DNA of 64,000 bases from NCBI RefSeq assembly GCF_054482595.1, contig NZ_CM137008.1. One strand, 5' to 3'. Positions 3,610 through 58,248 of the stretch are shown here, piece by piece. The notes under the pieces are model-generated. The model was given only the letters and a program-made list of their open reading frames with translations. It did no database searches and was not told the DNA's origin. The translations under genes were made by a program, and so were the position numbers. The stretch's first letter is position 1. Every line of letters begins with the position of its first letter.

Positions 3610-4850
3610 TGTTCTTTTCGGGATTATTTCAACGAAAAAGTGACGCACCGGTGACCACGCCAGCAGAGCTGGCGGATGCTATCGGGTTGTCCTACGACAC
3701 CTATACCGGAAAGCAGATCAGCAGCCAGCGGGCCATGCGACTGACGGCGGTTTTTTCCTGTGTCAGGGTGCTGGCGGAGTCGGTCGGGATGTTGCCCTGC
3801 AACCTGTATCACCTGAACGGCAGCCTGAAGCAGAGAGCCACTGGCGAACGTCTGCATAAGCTGATCTCCACGCATCCCAATGGCTATATGACGCCGCAGG
3901 AGTTCTGGGAGCTGGTGGTCACCTGTCTGTGCCTGCGGGGAAACTTTTACGCCTACAAAGTGAAAGCATTTGGCGAAGTGGCTGAACTGCTGCCCGTCGA
4001 TCCCGGCTGTGTGGTACCGAAGCTTAACAGTAGCTGGGAGCCGGTCTATCAGGTCACATTCCCGGATGGCTCCACGGATGTACTGAGCCAGGAGGATATC
4101 TGGCATGTGCGCACGCTGACGCTGGACGGACTGGTGGGGCTGAATCCCATCGCCTATGCCCGCGAGGCAATATCGCTGGCGGCAGCGACCGAAGAGCACG
4201 GGGCCAGACTGTTCAGCAATGGCGCGGTGACGTCGGGTGTGTTGCGTACAGAGCAGACGCTGTCAGATCAGGCTTATGAGCGCCTGAAGAAAGATTTTGA
4301 GGAGCGTCACACCGGGCTTGGCAATGCTCACCGCCCGATGATCCTTGAGATGGGGCTGGACTGGAAGTCGATGGCGCTGAACGCCGAGGACAGCCAGTTC
4401 CTGGAAACCCGCAGGTTTCAGCTTGAAGAAATCTGTCGTCTGTTCCGGGTGCCGTTGCACATGGTGCAGAACACCGATCGCGCCACCTTCAACAATATCG
4501 AAGAGCTGGGGCTGGGATTTATCAACTATTCACTGGTGCCGTATCTGACCCGCATCGAACAGCGGATCAACACCGGACTGGTACGAAAAAGTAAGCAGGG
4601 CGTTTATTACGCCAAATTTAACGCCGGGGCGTTACTGCGCGGGGATATGAAGTCCCGTTTTGAAGCCTACGCCACCGGGATCAACTGGGGAATTTACTCT
4701 CCCAATGACTGCCGCGACCTGGAAGATATGAATCCGCGTCCCGGTGGTGATGTCTATCTCACACCGATGAACATGACCACGAAACCCTCCGATGGCAGTA
4801 AAGCCGGTAAGCAGAAGGATAACGCCAATGCAGACGAAACAACGTCTTGA
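3609..4850 (+). CDS. Portal protein (HK97 family)
   Basis: 413 aa ORF, GTG start with ggagg SD, position after TerL. Confidence 0.85.
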   Translation: MFFSGLFQRKSDAPVTTPAELADAIGLSYDTYTGKQISSQRAMRLTAVFSCVRVLAESVGMLPCNLYHLNGSLKQRATGERLHKLISTHPNGYMTPQEFWELVVTCLCLRGNFYAYKVKAFGEVAELLPVDPGCVVPKLNSSWEPVYQVTFPDGSTDVLSQEDIWHVRTLTLDGLVGLNPIAYAREAISLAAATEEHGARLFSNGAVTSGVLRTEQTLSDQAYERLKKDFEERHTGLGNAHRPMILEMGLDWKSMALNAEDSQFLETRRFQLEEICRLFRVPLHMVQNTDRATFNNIEELGLGFINYSLVPYLTRIEQRINTGLVRKSKQGVYYAKFNAGALLRGDMKSRFEAYATGINWGIYSPNDCRDLEDMNPRPGGDVYLTPMNMTTKPSDGSKAGKQKDNANADETTS

Positions 4851-50466: not shown

Positions 50467-50705
50467 GTGTTCATGTTCTGTGCATCCCGTCACAAATTCC
50501 TCGCTTTTGTAATTCAGGCATTTAATCGCATTTTGTGAGCCTGCTCAAATCTGCCCGCTTTGCCTCTCTGGCGGCAATTTACTTTACGTAAAACATGCAT
50601 ACTATGAGCACATGTTTAAATATGAACACATGTTTAAACCGTCTTTGCAGTATCTATATCCTTGTGGATTGACAGGGTTGGTAATTTTTTACCAGAGGAC
50701 GTGCT

Positions 50706-51647
50706 ATGCGCGAAAAGGATTATGTCGTAATTATAGGTTCGGCGAATATTGATGTCGCCGGATATTCACATGAATCATTAAATTATGCGGATTCAAATCC
50801 AGGTAAAATAAAATTTACACCTGGTGGAGTAGGGCGAAATATTGCACAAAACCTGGCGTTGCTGGGTAACAAAGCCTGGTTACTGAGCGCAGTAGGTAGT
50901 GATTTTTATGGTCAATCGCTGCTAACGCAAACCAATCAATCTGGCGTTTATGTCGATAAATGCCTGATTGTGCCGGGAGAAAATACGTCGAGTTATTTAT
51001 CATTACTCGATAATACCGGTGAAATGCTGGTTGCTATAAATGACATGAATATTAGCAACGCTATTACAGCTGAATATCTCGCACAGCACCGTGAATTTAT
51101 TCAGAGGGCAAAGGTCATTGTCGCGGACTGTAATATCAGTGAAGAGGCACTGGCATGGATTCTGGATAATGCTGCCAACGTACCCGTATTTGTCGATCCG
51201 GTTTCAGCGTGGAAATGTGTCAAAGTGCGCGACCGTCTAAATCAGATCCACACTCTGAAGCCAAACCGCCTTGAAGCGGAAACACTGAGTGGGATTGCGC
51301 TGTCAGGGCGTGAAGATGTGGCAAAAGTTGCTGCCTGGTTCCATCAACATGGCCTGAACCGACTGGTATTGAGCATGGGCGGCGATGGCGTTTATTACAG
51401 TGATATCAGCGGTGAAAGTGGCTGGTCTGCCCCGATCAAAACCAATGTTATTAATGTTACCGGAGCGGGCGATGCCATGATGGCGGGACTTGCTTCGTGT
51501 TGGGTAGACGGAATGCCGTTTGCCGAATCTGTTCGTTTCGCACAGGGATGTTCGTCAATGGCGCTCTCCTGTGAATACACCAATAACCCCGATTTATCGA
51601 TTGCCAACGTTATATCGTTAGTGGAGAACGCAGAATGTCTGAATTAA
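50706..51647 (+). CDS. psuK: Pseudouridine kinase
   Basis: 313 aa, pfkB-family carbohydrate kinase, MREKDYVVIIGSANIDVAGY... Confidence 0.9.
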   Translation: MREKDYVVIIGSANIDVAGYSHESLNYADSNPGKIKFTPGGVGRNIAQNLALLGNKAWLLSAVGSDFYGQSLLTQTNQSGVYVDKCLIVPGENTSSYLSLLDNTGEMLVAINDMNISNAITAEYLAQHREFIQRAKVIVADCNISEEALAWILDNAANVPVFVDPVSAWKCVKVRDRLNQIHTLKPNRLEAETLSGIALSGREDVAKVAAWFHQHGLNRLVLSMGGDGVYYSDISGESGWSAPIKTNVINVTGAGDAMMAGLASCWVDGMPFAESVRFAQGCSSMALSCEYTNNPDLSIANVISLVENAECLN

Positions 51648-52573
51648 AAATTTCCCCTGAATTATTACAAATTTCCCCGGAAGTGCAGGACGCTTTAAAA
51701 AACAAAAAACCGGTTGTGGCGCTGGAATCGACCATTATTTCTCACGGGATGCCGTTCCCACAAAATGCCCAGACCGCAATTGAAGTTGAAGAAACTATTC
51801 GTAAACAGGGCGCTGTACCTGCCACTATCGCCATTATTGGCGGCGTGATGAAAGTTGGTTTAAGCAAAGAAGAAATTGAATTACTGGGTCGTGAAGGGCA
51901 TAACGTGACCAAAGTTAGTCGTCGCGATTTACCTTTTGTTGTTGCCGCCGGAAAAAATGGCGCAACCACTGTAGCTTCAACGATGATTATTGCGGCGCTT
52001 GCCGGAATTAAAGTATTTGCCACCGGGGGAATTGGTGGTGTGCATCGCGGGGCGGAACATACCTTCGATATTTCTGCCGATTTGCAAGAACTGGCAAATA
52101 CTAATGTCACCGTTGTTTGTGCCGGGGCGAAATCTATTCTCGATTTAGGATTAACCACTGAGTATTTAGAAACCTTCGGTGTGCCGTTAATTGGCTATCA
52201 GACTAAAGCGCTGCCTGCGTTTTTCTGCCGTACCAGCCCGTTTGACGTCAGCATTCGTCTCGACAGCGCCAGTGAAATTGCCCGTGCAATGGCGGTGAAA
52301 TGGCAAAGCGGGCTGAACGGTGGCCTCGTGGTAGCGAACCCGATCCCGGAACAGTTTGCGATGCCAGAACACACTATCAATGCGGCGATCGATCAGGCGG
52401 TAGCTGAAGCTGAAGCGCAGGGTGTTATTGGTAAAGAAAGTACGCCATTCCTGCTGGCGCGCGTTGCTGAACTGACCGGCGGTGACAGCCTGAAATCCAA
52501 CATCCAACTGGTGTTCAACAACGCCATTCTGGCGAGTGAAATTGCCAAAGAATACCAGCGTCTCGCGGGTTAA
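51635..52573 (+). CDS. psuG: Pseudouridine-5-prime-phosphate glycosidase
   Basis: 312 aa, [44 protein letters not shown]... Confidence 0.9.
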   Translation: [312 protein letters not shown]

Positions 52574-52666
52574 TTTCTGACGGGCAGAAAGCCGTCGCCC
52601 GTACTCATCAAACATACTAAAACCTGGCGCTGACGCCGGGTTTACTGGCATGAAGGGAAAATCATT

Positions 52667-53917
52667 ATGGACATAATGAGAAGTGTTGTGGGGATGGTGG
52701 TGTTACTGGCAATAGCATTTCTGTTGTCGGTAAATAAAAAGAGCATCAGTTTGCGCACGGTTGGAGCCGCACTGCTGCTGCAAATCGCTATTGGTGGCAT
52801 CATGCTCTATTTTCCGCCGGGAAAATGGGCAGTAGAACAGGCGGCATTAGGCGTTCATAAAGTGATGTCTTACAGTGATGCCGGTAGCGCCTTCATTTTT
52901 GGTTCGCTGGTCGGGCCGAAAATGGATGTCCTCTTTGACGGTGCGGGTTTTATCTTCGCCTTTCGCGTACTCCCGGCGATTATCTTCGTCACTGCGCTCA
53001 TTAGTCTGCTGTACTACATTGGCGTGATGGGGCTGCTGATTCGCATCCTTGGCAGCATTTTCCAGAAAGCCCTCAACATCAGCAAAATCGAATCTTTTGT
53101 TGCGGTTACCACTATTTTCCTCGGGCAAAATGAGATCCCGGCGATCGTTAAACCGTTTATCGATCGCATGAATCGCAACGAGTTGTTTACCGCAATTTGT
53201 AGCGGGATGGCGTCCATTGCGGGTTCGATGATGATTGGTTATGCCGGAATGGGCGTACCAATTGACTACCTGTTGGCGGCATCGCTGATGGCGATCCCCG
53301 GCGGTATTTTGTTTGCACGTATTCTTAGTCCGGCAACCGAGCCTTCGCAGGTCACATTTGAAAATCTGTCGTTCAGTGAAACGCCGCCAAAAAGCTTTAT
53401 CGAAGCGGCGGCGAGCGGTGCGATGACCGGGTTGAAAATCGCCGCCGGTGTGGCGACGGTGGTAATGGCGTTTGTCGCAATTATTGCGCTGATTAATGGC
53501 ATTATCGGCGGAATTGGCGGCTGGTTTGGTTTTACCAATGCTTCTCTGGAAAGTATTTTTGGCTATGTGCTGGCACCGCTGGCGTGGATCATGGGTGTGG
53601 ACTGGAGTGATGCCAACCTTGCGGGTAGCCTGATTGGGCAGAAACTGGCGATTAACGAATTCGTCGCTTACCTGAGTTTCTCCCCATACCTGCAAACGGG
53701 CGGCACGCTGGAAGTGAAAACCATTGCGATTATCTCCTTTGCGCTTTGTGGTTTTGCTAACTTTGGTTCTATCGGTGTTGTCGTTGGGGCATTTTCGGCT
53801 ATTTCGCCAAAACGTGCACCGGAAATCGCTCAGCTTGGTTTACGGGCGCTGGCAGCAGCAACGCTTTCCAACCTGATGAGCGCGACCATTGCCGGGTTCT
53901 TTATTGGTTTAGCTTGA
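52667..53917 (+). CDS. psuT: NupC-family nucleoside transporter (putative pseudouridine transporter)
   Basis: 416 aa, MDIMRSVVGMVVLLAIAFLLSVNKK...; close paralogue of nupX at 55854. Confidence 0.9.
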   Translation: MDIMRSVVGMVVLLAIAFLLSVNKKSISLRTVGAALLLQIAIGGIMLYFPPGKWAVEQAALGVHKVMSYSDAGSAFIFGSLVGPKMDVLFDGAGFIFAFRVLPAIIFVTALISLLYYIGVMGLLIRILGSIFQKALNISKIESFVAVTTIFLGQNEIPAIVKPFIDRMNRNELFTAICSGMASIAGSMMIGYAGMGVPIDYLLAASLMAIPGGILFARILSPATEPSQVTFENLSFSETPPKSFIEAAASGAMTGLKIAAGVATVVMAFVAIIALINGIIGGIGGWFGFTNASLESIFGYVLAPLAWIMGVDWSDANLAGSLIGQKLAINEFVAYLSFSPYLQTGGTLEVKTIAIISFALCGFANFGSIGVVVGAFSAISPKRAPEIAQLGLRALAAATLSNLMSATIAGFFIGLA

Positions 53918-53923
53918 GTTTCA

Positions 53924-53961
53924 TTGCCGGATGTACTCGCTTATTAAGCGTTGCATCCGGC
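53924..53961. repeat. REP-like palindromic element between convergent psuT and yeiL
   Basis: tgccggatgtactcgcttattaagcgttgcatccggca. Confidence 0.55.
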
Positions 53962-53984
53962 AATCGCGCTATTGCAAATAATTT

Positions 53985-54644: not shown

Positions 54645-54812
54645 CAATTGCTGCTTAAGATCATTATTGTGGATTTCTTTCACGATGTTTATCCGCTATG
54701 AGATTTCTCATATTTAGCATACGTACGCTGTTGTTAAGATTCAATCATCGGCCCGATCGAAATTTCTTTGCTGTAGAAAAAATAACGCAACTGGAAACAG
54801 AGGAAATAAACA

Positions 54813-55754
54813 ATGGAAAAGAGAAAAATTATTCTGGATTGTGATCCGGGTCATGATGATGCTATTGCTATAATGATGGCGGCGAAACATCCGGCAATAG
54901 ATTTATTAGGCATCACTATTGTAGCGGGTAATCAGACGCTTGATAAAACATTAATTAATGGCCTGAATGTTTGCCAGAAACTGGAGATTAATGTTCCGGT
55001 TTATGCGGGGATGCCACAACCCATTATGCGGCAACAAATCGTTGCCGATAATATTCACGGTGATACCGGACTGGATGGCCCGGTATTCGAGCCGCTGACC
55101 CGCCAGGCAGAAAGCACTCATGCGGTGAAATACATCATTGATACCCTGATGGCAAGCGATGGCGATATCACTCTGGTGCCGGTTGGTCCGCTTTCAAATA
55201 TCGCGGTGGCAATGCGTATGCAACCCGCGATCCTGCCCAAAATCCGTGAAATTGTGCTAATGGGCGGCGCTTACGGTACAGGCAACTTCACGCCATCTGC
55301 CGAGTTCAACATCTTTGCTGACCCGGAAGCCGCACGCGTGGTGTTCACCTCTGGCGTTCCATTAGTGATGATGGGCCTCGATCTCACCAACCAGACCGTT
55401 TGCACCCCGGACGTGATTGCACGAATGGAAAGGGCAGGCGGCCCTGCCGGAGAGCTGTTCAGCGACATCATGAACTTCACTCTCAAAACCCAGTTCGAAA
55501 ACTACGGCCTGGCTGGCGGCCCGGTGCACGACGCCACCTGCATCGGTTATCTGATTAACCCTGATGGCATTAAAACCCAGGAGATGTACGTCGAAGTGGA
55601 CGTCAACAGTGGCCCTTGTTATGGGCGTACCGTCTGCGACGAGCTGGGCGTTCTTGGCAAGCCCGCTAATACCAAAGTCGGCATCACTATTGATACCGAC
55701 TGGTTCTGGGGCTTAGTCGAAGAGTGCGTGCGCGGCTACATCAAAACCCATTAA
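54813..55754 (+). CDS. rihB: Pyrimidine-specific ribonucleoside hydrolase RihB
   Basis: 313 aa, [23 protein letters not shown] (nucleoside hydrolase DXDXXXDD motif). Confidence 0.9.
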
Positions 55755-55853
55755 GTGTTGATAACAAGCCGGGCCGGTATCGCAAGATGCAGGCCTGGCT
55801 ATTTCTGATGGGCAGAAAGCCGTCGCCCAATATGACATGAAGAGATAATCACT

Positions 55854-57104
55854 ATGGATGTCATGAGAAGTGTTCTGGGAATGGTGGTATTGCTGACGAT
55901 TGCGTTTTTACTGTCAGTAAACAAGAAGAAGATCAGCCTGCGCACCGTTGGCGCGGCGTTAGTGTTACAGGTCGTGATTGGCGGCATTATGCTTTGGTTA
56001 CCGCCAGGGCGTTGGGTCGCTGAAAAAGTCGCTTTTGGCGTGCATAAAGTGATGGCGTACAGCGACGCGGGTAGCGCATTTATCTTCGGTTCTCTGGTCG
56101 GACCGAAAATGGACACCTTATTTGATGGCGCAGGATTTATCTTTGGTTTCAGAGTATTACCGGCAATTATCTTCGTCACCGCGCTGGTGAGTATTCTCTA
56201 TTACATCGGTGTGATGGGGATCTTAATTCGCATTCTCGGCGGTATCTTCCAGAAAGCATTAAATATCAGCAAGATCGAGTCATTCGTCGCGGTCACTACC
56301 ATTTTCCTCGGGCAAAACGAAATTCCGGCAATCGTCAAACCCTTTATCGATCGGCTGAATCGCAATGAATTATTTACAGCGATTTGTAGTGGCATGGCCT
56401 CAATTGCCGGTTCGACAATGATTGGTTACGCCGCACTGGGCGTACCTGTGGAATATTTGCTGGCGGCATCGTTAATGGCGATCCCAGGCGGGATCTTGTT
56501 TGCCCGCCTGCTAAGCCCGGCTACGGAATCTTCGCAGGTTTCTTTTAATAACCTCTCTTTCACCGAAACACCGCCAAAAAGCATTATTGAAGCCGCCGCG
56601 ACAGGGGCAATGACCGGGCTGAAAATCGCCGCAGGTGTGGCGACAGTAGTGATGGCATTCGTCGCCATCATTGCGTTAATTAACGGTATTATCGGCGGCG
56701 TTGGCGGCTGGTTTGGTTTTGAACATGCCTCGCTGGAGTCCATTGTAGGTTATCTGCTGGCCCCACTGGCGTGGGTAATGGGTGTTGACTGGAGTGATGC
56801 GAATCTTGCCGGGAGTTTGATTGGACAGAAACTGGCAATAAATGAATTTGTCGCTTATCTCAATTTCTCACCTTATCTGCAAACGGCTGGCACTCTGGAT
56901 GCTAAAACCGTGGCGATTATTTCCTTCGCGTTGTGCGGTTTCGCTAACTTTGGTTCTATCGGGGTGGTGGTGGGGGCGTTTTCTGCGGTTGCGCCACACC
57001 GTGCGCCGGAAATCGCCCAGCTTGGTTTACGCGCGCTGGCGGCGGCGACACTTTCTAACCTGATGAGTGCCACCATTGCCGGGTTCTTTATTGGTTTAGC
57101 GTAG
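55854..57104 (+). CDS. nupX: NupC-family nucleoside transporter NupX
   Basis: 416 aa, MDVMRSVLGMVVLLTIAFLLSVNKK..., paralogue of psuT. Confidence 0.9.
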   Translation: MDVMRSVLGMVVLLTIAFLLSVNKKKISLRTVGAALVLQVVIGGIMLWLPPGRWVAEKVAFGVHKVMAYSDAGSAFIFGSLVGPKMDTLFDGAGFIFGFRVLPAIIFVTALVSILYYIGVMGILIRILGGIFQKALNISKIESFVAVTTIFLGQNEIPAIVKPFIDRLNRNELFTAICSGMASIAGSTMIGYAALGVPVEYLLAASLMAIPGGILFARLLSPATESSQVSFNNLSFTETPPKSIIEAAATGAMTGLKIAAGVATVVMAFVAIIALINGIIGGVGGWFGFEHASLESIVGYLLAPLAWVMGVDWSDANLAGSLIGQKLAINEFVAYLNFSPYLQTAGTLDAKTVAIISFALCGFANFGSIGVVVGAFSAVAPHRAPEIAQLGLRALAAATLSNLMSATIAGFFIGLA

Positions 57105-57118
57105 TGTGCGATTTATGA

Positions 57119-57152
57119 GCCGGATAAGATGCGGTCAAGCGTCGAATCCGGC
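57119..57152. repeat. REP-like palindromic element between nupX and yeiI
   Basis: gccggataagatgcggtcaagcgtcgaatccggc. Confidence 0.55.
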
Positions 57153-57159
57153 AACATTG

Positions 57160-58248
57160 TTACACCATTGGCACTAATGAAAGCGCGTTATCGGCAGACA
57201 GGGTAGGGTTGTTTAAGCTGCCGCTGGCGCGTGAAATTGCCGCGCAGGCCATCGCAAAACGGGCGCTGTCACGGAAATTGTTTCCTTCCAGAAAGCTATA
57301 TACCAGGCCCGCCATAAAACCATCGTCAGCACCAAAACTGTCTACTGTCGTATGCGCTGGTGCGGTCAGCAAAAATTGTTCTCCATCCTTTTCGCTGCAA
57401 TAAACTGACTCATCGGGCAAATAAACAAACAGTTGCTGAACACCTTGCTGATGCAACGCATTCACTGCAGCATTACGGTCAGCATCGCTGGTGATCGCCT
57501 GTCCCCATAAAATTTCCAGCTCCGGTAAAGTGGGTTTCAGGGTGTGAATATGCGCCAGCCAGTGTTTGATTTTGCCCGCTTTGAATTCTGAAACGGTATC
57601 GACAAACACCGGGATCTCACCAGCGAGGGTAAAGACCCATTCCAGCGCCTCGGCTGTCAGGTTGCAATCAGCCAGTACCACGCCCGCATGACGAAGTAAA
57701 TCGCGCGACCCGTTCAATAATTGCGGCGATAACTGTTCCAGCAGATGGGTATCGTTAATCGCCAGCACGGTTTCATCGTCTCGATTGGCAATTGCCAGAT
57801 ACGTCGATGTGCTTTGACCATGTAAACGAACGCAGCCGGAGACATTCACGCCGGCGCGGCGCGTTTCTTCCAGGAGCATTTCGCCATAAAAGTCATCGCC
57901 AATCACTGAAAGCAAATGGACGTCACGGCCTAACAGCGCCAGATTGTGGGCGATGTTGCGTCCCACGCCGCCCGCTGAGCAATGAATTGTACCGGGATGA
58001 GAAGCCGATTGCGGGTAACGGATATCCGCCATCCCGCGAATATCCATATTGATTGTCCCCACCACTACGCAGTATTCCTGCTCGGTGAGAATGTAACCTT
58101 TGCCTTTAATCCGGCCTTTGCGCATTAAATCCATAATATGCGCCGCAACGCGCGAACGACTGATTTGCAGCATGTCCGCAATTTCGTTCTGCTGAATCAG
58201 CGGGTTACGCCGTAAAATTGCAAGGATCTCCTTTTCCCGGTTATTCAT
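57160..58248 (-). CDS. yeiI: Sugar kinase with N-terminal HTH (YeiI)
   Basis: 362 aa, MNNREKEILAILRRNPLIQQNEIADMLQISRSRV... then pfkB-like kinase. Confidence 0.85.
   Translation of the reverse strand: MNNREKEILAILRRNPLIQQNEIADMLQISRSRVAAHIMDLMRKGRIKGKGYILTEQEYCVVVGTINMDIRGMADIRYPQSASHPGTIHCSAGGVGRNIAHNLALLGRDVHLLSVIGDDFYGEMLLEETRRAGVNVSGCVRLHGQSTSTYLAIANRDDETVLAINDTHLLEQLSPQLLNGSRDLLRHAGVVLADCNLTAEALEWVFTLAGEIPVFVDTVSEFKAGKIKHWLAHIHTLKPTLPELEILWGQAITSDADRNAAVNALHQQGVQQLFVYLPDESVYCSEKDGEQFLLTAPAHTTVDSFGADDGFMAGLVYSFLEGNNFRDSARFAMACAAISRASGSLNNPTLSADNALSLVPMV

Follow-up and report, generated by a model that had tools for sequence, protein, structure and literature searches.

A predicted mRNA hairpin conserved in the leaders of the paralogous transporter genes psuT and nupX

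Why do two old gene duplicates keep almost the same 27 nt of non-coding DNA ahead of them? The question is raised by psuT and nupX, two transporter genes of the psu/rih cluster of Escherichia coli, which we studied in a 64,000-nt stretch of contig NZ_CM137008.1 (RefSeq assembly GCF_054482595.1; hereafter, the window). An initial annotation, made from the letters of the DNA, had described their products as closely related 416-residue NupC-family proteins whose leaders share a motif, and both statements held. PsuT and NupX are 88% identical over 416 aa, and the CNT domains Nucleos_tra2_N, Gate and Nucleos_tra2_C (Pfam) are present in their homologs. The motif, TTTCTGA[C/T]GGGCAGAAAGCCGTCGCCC, occurs exactly as described upstream of each gene and nowhere else in the window, with 26 of 27 positions identical between the two copies; allowing up to three mismatches added no match in the window, where shuffled sequences lead one to expect 0. 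A similar segment nearer the start codons, also pointed out previously, is identical at 20 of 23 positions (catgaagGgaAaatcaTtatgga vs catgaagAgaTaatcaCtatgga).

At the DNA level psuT and nupX are old duplicates, with 78.5% identity between their coding sequences and 48% (91/190) at fourfold-degenerate sites. Merely 8 of the 1225 27-nt windows of their coding alignment reach 26/27, and at the synonymous-site rate the probability of at least 26/27 is ~7e-8. Because coding and fourfold divergence are so high, the 26/27 non-coding match is not what neutral retention would leave. The earlier suggestion of a shared cis element stands in part: the element seems to be under selection, to belong to the transporter leaders and to be best read as RNA structure, but the hairpin originally drawn was the wrong one. 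The hairpin that has been conserved, here called hp1, overlaps the motif as follows:

52574-52600, + strand: 27-nt motif, psuT copy, directly after the psuG stop codon
55802-55828, + strand: 27-nt motif, nupX copy
52580-52602, + strand: hp1 of the psuT leader, A-CGGGC (52580-52585) pairing with GCCCG-U (52597-52602)
52586-52596, + strand: hp1 loop of the psuT leader, 11 nt, AGAAAGCCGUC
55809-55829, + strand: hp1 of the nupX leader, UGGGC (55809-55813) pairing with GCCCA (55825-55829)

The two loops are the same, and the closing pair is U-A in nupX where psuT has C-G; the single C/T difference between the motif copies is half of this compensated pair. In isolation, the psuT hp1 folds with a minimum free energy of -11.1 kcal/mol (z -2.4).

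Comparison loci were gathered through a genome scan, through NupX homologs and through a pattern scan of metagenomes. Among 21 psuT and nupX leaders, 20 carry hp1 25-69 nt before the start codon, and it was found in addition on 18 metagenome contigs. Its hosts are Escherichia, Citrobacter, Kluyvera, Klebsiella, Leclercia, Buttiauxella, Superficieibacter, Entomohabitans, Dryocola and others. The initial annotation had recommended aligning the leaders across Enterobacteriaceae for covariation, and in such an alignment hp1 is kept, with compensatory changes, in about ten enterobacterial genera; the pairing statistics that follow refer to 28 distinct leaders from these genera. RNAalifold, applied to 20 leaders, returned exactly the 6-bp hairpin (A)YGGGC/GCCCR(U), and across the 28 leaders hp1 is 94.6% paired. 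By these alignments the conserved structure is a stem of 5-6 bp, (A)YGGGC/GCCCR(U), predicted to close 11 nt; its general form is an arm YRGGY, 11 nt and an arm RCCYR.

Taken pair by pair, the outer sixth pair is A-U in 12 leaders, G-C in 7 and G.U in 1; the closing pair is C-G in 20, U-A in 5 and U.G in 2; the next pair inward is G-C in 27 and A-U in 1; two G-C pairs are invariant; and the loop-adjacent pair is C-G in 26 and U.G in 2. Compensatory double changes thus occur at three of the six pairs (C-G/U-A, G-C/A-U and A-U/G-C), and the paired cells, the double-change cells and the covariation score all exceeded 500 of 500 shuffles and every slid register. Half-changed states within the five core pairs are all G.U on the sense strand, never A.C, and this directional bias speaks more for structure in the mRNA itself than for a DNA palindrome or an antisense RNA. 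Wobble polymorphism of hp1 is found even within a species, in the psuT leader of E. coli DETEC-P622 (CUGGUGGGC...GCCCGU). Fourfold-degenerate sites between hp1-bearing genera are saturated (36-52% identity). Pairs maintained by both compensatory and wobble changes on the transcribed strand are the mark of a conserved cis-regulatory RNA, and hp1 bears it. Outside Escherichia and Citrobacter the 11-nt "loop" is itself predicted to be structured, with a conserved A.C mismatch, two or three more pairs (wobbles of G.U type for the most part) and a small apical loop: loop positions L2 and L10 (G.U) pair in 17 of 18 such leaders and L3 and L9 (U.G, C-G or U-A) in all 18, with a variable third pair.

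The hairpin proposed in the initial annotation, GACGG/CCGTC (52579-52596), does pair in psuT, and in nupX as GAUGG/CCGUC with one U.G, but it is not conserved: its pairing comes to 65.7%, a level that shuffles reach as well, and in 22 of 28 leaders the same one of its pairs is open. It is Escherichia-specific and overlaps hp1. A third fold of the same stretch is an exact palindrome, also restricted to Escherichia, and is mutually exclusive both with hp1 and with the GACGG/CCGUC hairpin:

52574-52590, + strand: alternative hairpin UUUCUG-ACGGG-CAGAAA

A pseudoknot between the hp1 loop and the downstream leader scored no better than with shuffled loops, and no conserved alternative pairing of hp1 with a second leader hairpin (hp2, below) or with the Shine-Dalgarno region was found in the leaders. 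Two resemblances were set aside. A reading akin to a selenocysteine insertion sequence (UGA before a hairpin with GGUC) fails because the UGA is neither in frame with psuG nor conserved, and the likeness of GCCCGUCAC to the 1400 region of 16S rRNA is a match of 7-9 nt, as expected by chance.

The position of hp1 speaks to which gene it belongs to. It follows two unrelated genes, psuG and rihB, and always precedes a paralogous transporter gene, and the homology between the psuT and nupX loci begins at its 5' flank. The leader travels with the transporter gene and not with the upstream enzyme gene. Leaders occupy a median of 2 and a maximum of 3 places per E. coli genome, under psuG/psuT and rihB/nupX. 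A covariance model of hp1 recovered psuT and nupX leaders only (the window, 84 related loci and 100 metagenome contigs; 1.5 Mb), once two additional matches, in a Vibrio locus (L066) and a GC-rich metagenome contig (L133), had been dismissed as chance hits inside open reading frames (ORFs). Of the 120 metagenome pattern matches, 102 do not lie beside psuT or nupX homologs. We also rejected hp1 as a repetitive extragenic palindrome (REP), a bacterial interspersed mosaic element (BIME) or another dispersed repeat, given two places per genome and no other covariance-model site in 1.5 Mb.

The leader beyond hp1 is organized around the following features; hp1 comes first, then an unpaired spacer rich in C and A, then hp2 where it is present, and last the Shine-Dalgarno region:

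52602-52622, + strand: G-free C/A-rich spacer of the psuT leader, UACUCAUCAAACAUACUAAAA
52619-52643, + strand: hp2 of the psuT leader, AAAA-CCUGGCG-CUGA-CGCCGGG-UUU, terminator-like with a short U tract
52649-52669, + strand: proximal segment and Shine-Dalgarno region of psuT, CAUGAAGGGAAAAUCAUU; start codon at 52667
55836-55856, + strand: proximal segment and Shine-Dalgarno region of nupX, CAUGAAGAGAUAAUCACU; start codon at 55854
55767-55800, + strand: hairpin hp0 after the rihB stop codon, AGCCGGGCC...GCAA...GGCCUGGCU, species-specific

The psuT spacer is the E. coli form of a conserved C/A-rich box that follows hp1, AUAUCARAC(A/C)UACCRAAA. The hp2 consensus, AAAACCUGGCG-N4-CGCCGGGUUU, is kept in psuT leaders and in nupX of K. 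spallanzanii and is absent from E. coli nupX. It lies in a 41-nt block of the psuT leader that most nupX leaders lack, having lost hp2 by deletion between flanking CCTGGC direct repeats, and the nupX leader of the window has a further 12-nt deletion relative to another E. coli lineage. The initial annotation held that the leaders had diverged outside the motif; the alignment instead indicates that they are homologous throughout and differ by indels, namely the 41-nt hp2 block and the 12-nt deletion. Every nupX leader (the window; L011, L082-L090) has a stable hairpin immediately after the rihB stop codon, at a kept position and with sequences unrelated between genera; the E. coli version, hp0, has a GCAA tetraloop.

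Retention since duplication, the cause originally offered for the 26/27 match, does not account for it. In E. coli the two copies agree at 26/27 motif positions and 11/11 loop positions, whereas agreement is just 17/27 (Kluyvera) or 15/27 (locus L089) in the other genomes with both paralogs, and 15-22/27 between orthologs of different genera. Near-identity within E. coli above that of other two-paralog genomes points to concerted evolution. Both E. coli copies carry states found only in Escherichia: the loop AGAAAG, C at loop position 8 and a hybrid flank TTTCTGA. There is no trace of recent exchange between the psuT and nupX coding sequences, in which fourfold identity (48%) is the same as in inter-genus comparisons. 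The simplest reading would add to the long-term constraint either gene conversion over a very short tract or parallel selection by a shared partner. The closing pair, which is compensated, lies within the putative conversion tract, and this suggests that pairing itself has been selected.

What hp1 might do depends on its operon setting. The cluster comprises these genes:

50706-51647: psuK
51635-52573: psuG, stop codon TAA at 52571-52573
52667-53917, + strand: psuT, CNT-family (NupC-type) transporter, 416 aa
53985-54683, minus strand: yeiL, CRP/FNR family
54813-55754: rihB
55854-57104, + strand: nupX, CNT-family transporter, 416 aa
57160-58248, minus strand: yeiI, HTH_24 and PfkB domains
after yeiI: nfo

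K-12 MG1655 has the same genes under these names, and both of its leaders have the identical motif. The E. coli gene order recurs in Kluyvera and Entomohabitans. In E. albertii, Citrobacter and K. michiganensis, psuKGT-yeiI-nfo is present but yeiL-rihB-nupX is not; in Leclercia, Buttiauxella and a Salmonella-labelled contig, yeiL-rihB-nupX is present but psuKGT and yeiI are missing. Because gene order varies in this way, yeiL-rihB-nupX and psuKGT-yeiI act as separate modules, and neither yeiL nor yeiI is universal among hp1 genomes: yeiL occurs with rihB-nupX and yeiI with psuKGT. Either module can be missing, and their order is swapped in locus L089.

We consider it somewhat probable that the motif is the Escherichia version of hp1, and that hp1 is a sense-strand mRNA hairpin which tunes transporter expression post-transcriptionally. 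In such a scheme the transporter cistron would be co-transcribed with the upstream enzyme gene (psuG or rihB), and hp1, acting on the message, would set transporter output independently of the enzymes. Most likely hp1 would act through its structure on how the mRNA is processed or how stable it is, whether by protecting a processed end or by separating the cistrons as a barrier; hp1 could alternatively serve as a docking site for a trans-acting factor. No sigma-70-like promoter was predicted on the + strand upstream of either leader, and a published list of transcription start sites (TSSs; Adams 2021, PMC7815308 supplement) contains none in the psuG-psuT or rihB-nupX spacers, which fits an intercistronic location. 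Different stable hairpins stand at the position of hp1 in the psuT leaders of Entomohabitans and of Serratia and Hafnia, and the replacement of hp1 by unrelated stable hairpins at the same place argues for a structural role.

Several observations weigh against this proposal. hp1 is small, and two of its six pairs never vary. Compensatory events are few and partly inherited, the U-A closing pair being mostly of nupX type and G-C at the sixth pair clustering in few clades, and the sixth pair is open in 8 of 28 leaders. Ten of the 28 sequences came from the metagenome scan, in which GGGC/GCCC was fixed in the pattern. Folded alone, the E. coli nupX copy does not surpass shuffles (z -0.9). In one nupX leader (L143) the closing pair is a U/U mismatch, and Entomohabitans psuT has its different, longer hairpin in place of hp1. 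A weak peak of RpoS holoenzyme, from systematic evolution of ligands by exponential enrichment (SELEX), lies inside psuG about 220 bp before the stop codon (PMC5493296) and leaves room for an internal promoter. A purely structural role would not account for the strong conservation of GCGGUC, which makes up the 3' half of the loop, or for the identity of the two copies in E. coli. Finally, the mechanism as we describe it is wholly inferred: our literature search returned nothing on the regulation of the psuT and nupX leaders, including reporter, rapid amplification of cDNA ends (RACE), transcript-end and probing data.

Other explanations can be set against the same observations. hp1 might serve the upstream cistron, with hp1, the C/A-rich box and hp2 forming a 3'-untranslated region (3'-UTR) unit of psuG, and hp0 plus hp1 forming that of rihB; such a unit could keep 3' exonucleases off the enzyme mRNA once transcription has partly terminated or the transcript has been cleaved, or could release a small RNA (sRNA) of ~70 nt with the C/A-rich box as its seed. 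In psuT-type leaders hp1 does begin 8-16 nt past the psuG stop codon, hp2 combines a GC stem with an A tract before it and a U tract after it, and the hp1-hp2 unit is sRNA-shaped. Rfam 15 gave no family at its gathering threshold over the hp1 element, the window region or the K. spallanzanii leader, and its best matches, all below threshold, are sRNA models over 52570-52645 (isrJ, 21.2/37 bits; Yfr1, 18.1/38; FsrA, 13.9/80). We nonetheless find a role for the upstream cistron doubtful, as hp1 stands behind two genes that are not related to each other and its inheritance goes with the leader and coding sequence of the transporter, most nupX leaders keep hp1 without the hp2 terminator and already have a hairpin of their own (hp0) after rihB, and no 3' end has been reported at the psuG-psuT or rihB-nupX spacers. 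The hp2 U tract amounts to only 3-4 U, and a terminator scan called neither hp1 nor hp2; hp1 itself was rejected as an intrinsic terminator because GUACUCAUC (psuT) or AAUAUGAC (nupX), not a U-rich tract, comes next. Conservation of the loop beyond the needs of pairing (the A.C mismatch in 22 of 28, an invariant U at L10, GCGGUC in most) would be expected if hp1 docked a specific trans-acting regulator, such as an RNA-binding protein, small RNA or small ligand, through which transporter synthesis responds to the supply of nucleosides. The E. coli copies keep identical loops together with Escherichia-only changes, as if fitting one partner, and the conserved residues and identical loops keep a factor-binding version of our proposal alive. 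Neither the pseudoknot search, nor pairing with GcvB, nor co-occurrence with yeiL or yeiI yielded a partner, however, and no regulator encoded at the locus is universal (yeiL accompanies rihB-nupX, yeiI psuKGT). For GcvB, nt 56-100 of the K-12 RNA (R1 region) were matched against the C/A-rich box, and that target was rejected, since duplex energies in 15 leaders (z -1.4 to +1.65 vs shuffles) are explained by composition. Moreover, hp1 is too small for a typical riboswitch and lacks a pseudoknot with downstream sequence, the Leclercia-type loop is very different, and other lineages swap hp1 for unrelated hairpins; docking of a specific regulator seems to us unlikely. Equally unlikely, in our view, is its boldest form, a riboregulatory system not described before that would serve only the PsuT/NupX-type CNT transporters of Enterobacteriaceae and recognize hp1. 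There, a protein or small RNA acting in trans, or else a ligand derived from nucleosides, would bind the conserved upper part of hp1 with its A.C and G.U pairs. Control of transporter synthesis would then not depend on the operon promoters, and the two E. coli loops would be identical through co-evolution with a single partner.

Explanations at the level of DNA, or of no function at all, fare worse. As a DNA operator for a transcription factor such as YeiL or YeiI, the motif would be read as TTTCTG-N5-CAGAAA or CGGGC-N11-GCCCG, and it is a perfect 6+6 palindrome in both E. coli copies; regulator genes lie within the locus, and an inverted repeat, TTTCT-ttgctgt-AGAAA, with a loose likeness to the TTTCTG-N5-CAGAAA palindrome, stands at 54763-54779 in the yeiL-rihB divergent promoter region, ~35 bp before the rihB start. 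An operator is quite improbable all the same: TTTCTG/CAGAAA is confined to Escherichia, on which ground we rejected it, and the wobble states (T opposite G) break DNA symmetry while keeping RNA pairing. At every locus the promoter regions of psuK and rihB gave no match to the covariance model. The site itself stands between two genes of the same orientation, where no promoter is predicted, and yeiL and yeiI are each missing from some hp1 genomes. If the motif were instead a functionless relic, left over from the duplication of the leader and evened out in E. coli by a recent short gene conversion, the 26/27 match in E. coli against 15-17/27 elsewhere would follow, as would the shared Escherichia-only states and hybrid 5' flank; nupX, too, is dispensable, being internally deleted in some E. 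coli strains. That hp1 persists across genera with saturated synonymous sites, that compensatory and wobble changes keep it paired, and that the closing pair differs between the E. coli copies, compensated, inside the putative tract make a relic very improbable. The last alternative, a short upstream ORF overlapping hp1 whose leader peptide controls the transporter by being translated, draws on the closing U of U-A-type copies, which creates an AUG (in nupX, AUG GGC AGA AAG CCG UCG CCC AAU AUG ACA UGA); such ORFs, of 3-24 codons, occur in several nupX leaders, and one in Buttiauxella is in frame with nupX. But the AUG sits inside the stem with no Shine-Dalgarno sequence before it, C-G-type copies (ACG), which include every psuT-type leader, have no start codon, and length, frame and peptide are not conserved, so that we give this explanation almost no credence.

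Our preferred reading, a leader hairpin acting post-transcriptionally, has partial parallels in known systems. The ompA 5'-UTR stabiliser, reportedly described by Emory, Bouvet and Belasco in 1992 as hairpin, single strand, hairpin and Shine-Dalgarno sequence, resembles the psuT and nupX leaders in its modular order (hp1, spacer, hp2 and ribosome-binding site), in preceding a membrane-protein gene and in a role that rests on structure above sequence; it differs in that the ompA hairpin acts at the extreme 5' end of a primary transcript, whereas hp1 is apparently intercistronic and has a sequence-conserved loop. The malE-malF intercistronic stem-loops (REP), which Newbury et al. are said to have linked in 1987 to differential cistron expression, likewise place a stable hairpin within an operon, after a gene for a soluble protein and before one for a membrane transporter. 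Unlike REP, hp1 has two copies per genome and is inherited with the downstream gene, and REP-like elements are found instead 3' of psuT and nupX. With the PyrR binding loop and preQ1-I-type riboswitches, hp1 shares a short conserved hairpin with conserved loop residues before a nucleoside-related transporter gene, but it has no Rfam match, terminator/antiterminator overlap, pseudoknot or known partner in Enterobacteriaceae. The psuT unit is like 3'-UTR-derived Hfq sRNAs, and the isrJ and Yfr1 models, in its 5' hairpin, unpaired conserved stretch and terminator hairpin; it is unlike them in scoring 21 vs 37 bits, in its short U tail, in the gene directly after it and in the absence of hp2 from most nupX leaders.

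From the comparisons made here, hp1 seems to be a conserved hairpin, small and not catalogued before, in the mRNA leaders of PsuT/NupX transporters, and would add a candidate to the cis-regulatory RNAs of enterobacteria. It offers a mutable handle on how transporter levels are set apart from co-transcribed catabolic enzymes in enteric bacteria, and it raises the questions of whether psuT and nupX share a post-transcriptional regulator and whether short gene-conversion tracts keep paralogous regulatory elements in step. The transporters themselves are poorly understood: NupX transports uridine and cytidine weakly, and for PsuT, whose assignment to pseudouridine rests solely on operon context, no substrate was detected (PMC11241209). 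hp1 may also be relevant to engineering the uptake or export of pseudouridine and nucleosides in production strains.

A number of smaller features of the leaders and their surroundings were recorded. The psuT start codon lies inside a perfect 7-bp local hairpin, UCAUUAU-GGAC-AUAAUGA (52667-52686), and in nupX the leader sequence AUGACAU can pair with AUGUCAU of codons 2-4. In the more distant Serratia, Hafnia and Klebsiella sp. (L006-L009, 60-190 nt upstream of position 4001) the psuG-psuT spacer is occupied by a different, long hairpin, CCUGAAAGGUGG...CCUUUCAGG, with conserved arms and a variable interior. REP-like palindromes directly follow the stop codons of psuT (53918-53970, GCCGGATG...CATCCGGC) and nupX (57105-57160, GCCGGATAAG...GAATCCGGC). 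Within the coding regions, crosslinking of RNA hybrids on Hfq (Hfq-CLASH) gave chimeras of CpxQ with psuT codons ~6-22 (window ~52682-52735) and of CpxQ and CyaR with nupX, none of them at the motif (PMC7213987).

Upstream, psuK is listed as an RprA target in TRIC-seq and RIL-seq (bioRxiv 10.1101/2025.09.11.675593), and the Adams 2021 data (PMC7815308) include an "orphan" TSS 237 nt before psuK (window ~50469, + strand; K-12 2259533(-)) as well as a TSS antisense to the 3' end of yeiL and directed towards rihB (window ~54011, + strand; K-12 2255991(-)). Two tandem copies of a direct repeat, GA(G/A)CACATGTTTAAA, lie 18 nt apart at 50606-50638, ~70-100 bp before the psuK start, and form a candidate operator for the promoter of the psu operon. 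Because yeiI co-occurs with psuKGT across genomes, YeiI is a candidate regulator of that operon.

E. coli NupX is 88-89% identical to all sampled PsuT and NupX proteins; being roughly equidistant from them, it represents a long branch. In some E. coli lineages nupX is internally deleted, a 66-nt 5' remnant being joined to the 3' end (L212 6694-6800 in E. coli DETEC-P622; L213; L214 1400-2950 in E. coli 13C1065T). The hp1 stem upstream of such a remnant is intact despite two substitutions. Another strain carries an IS1-associated deletion that runs from psuG to rihB.

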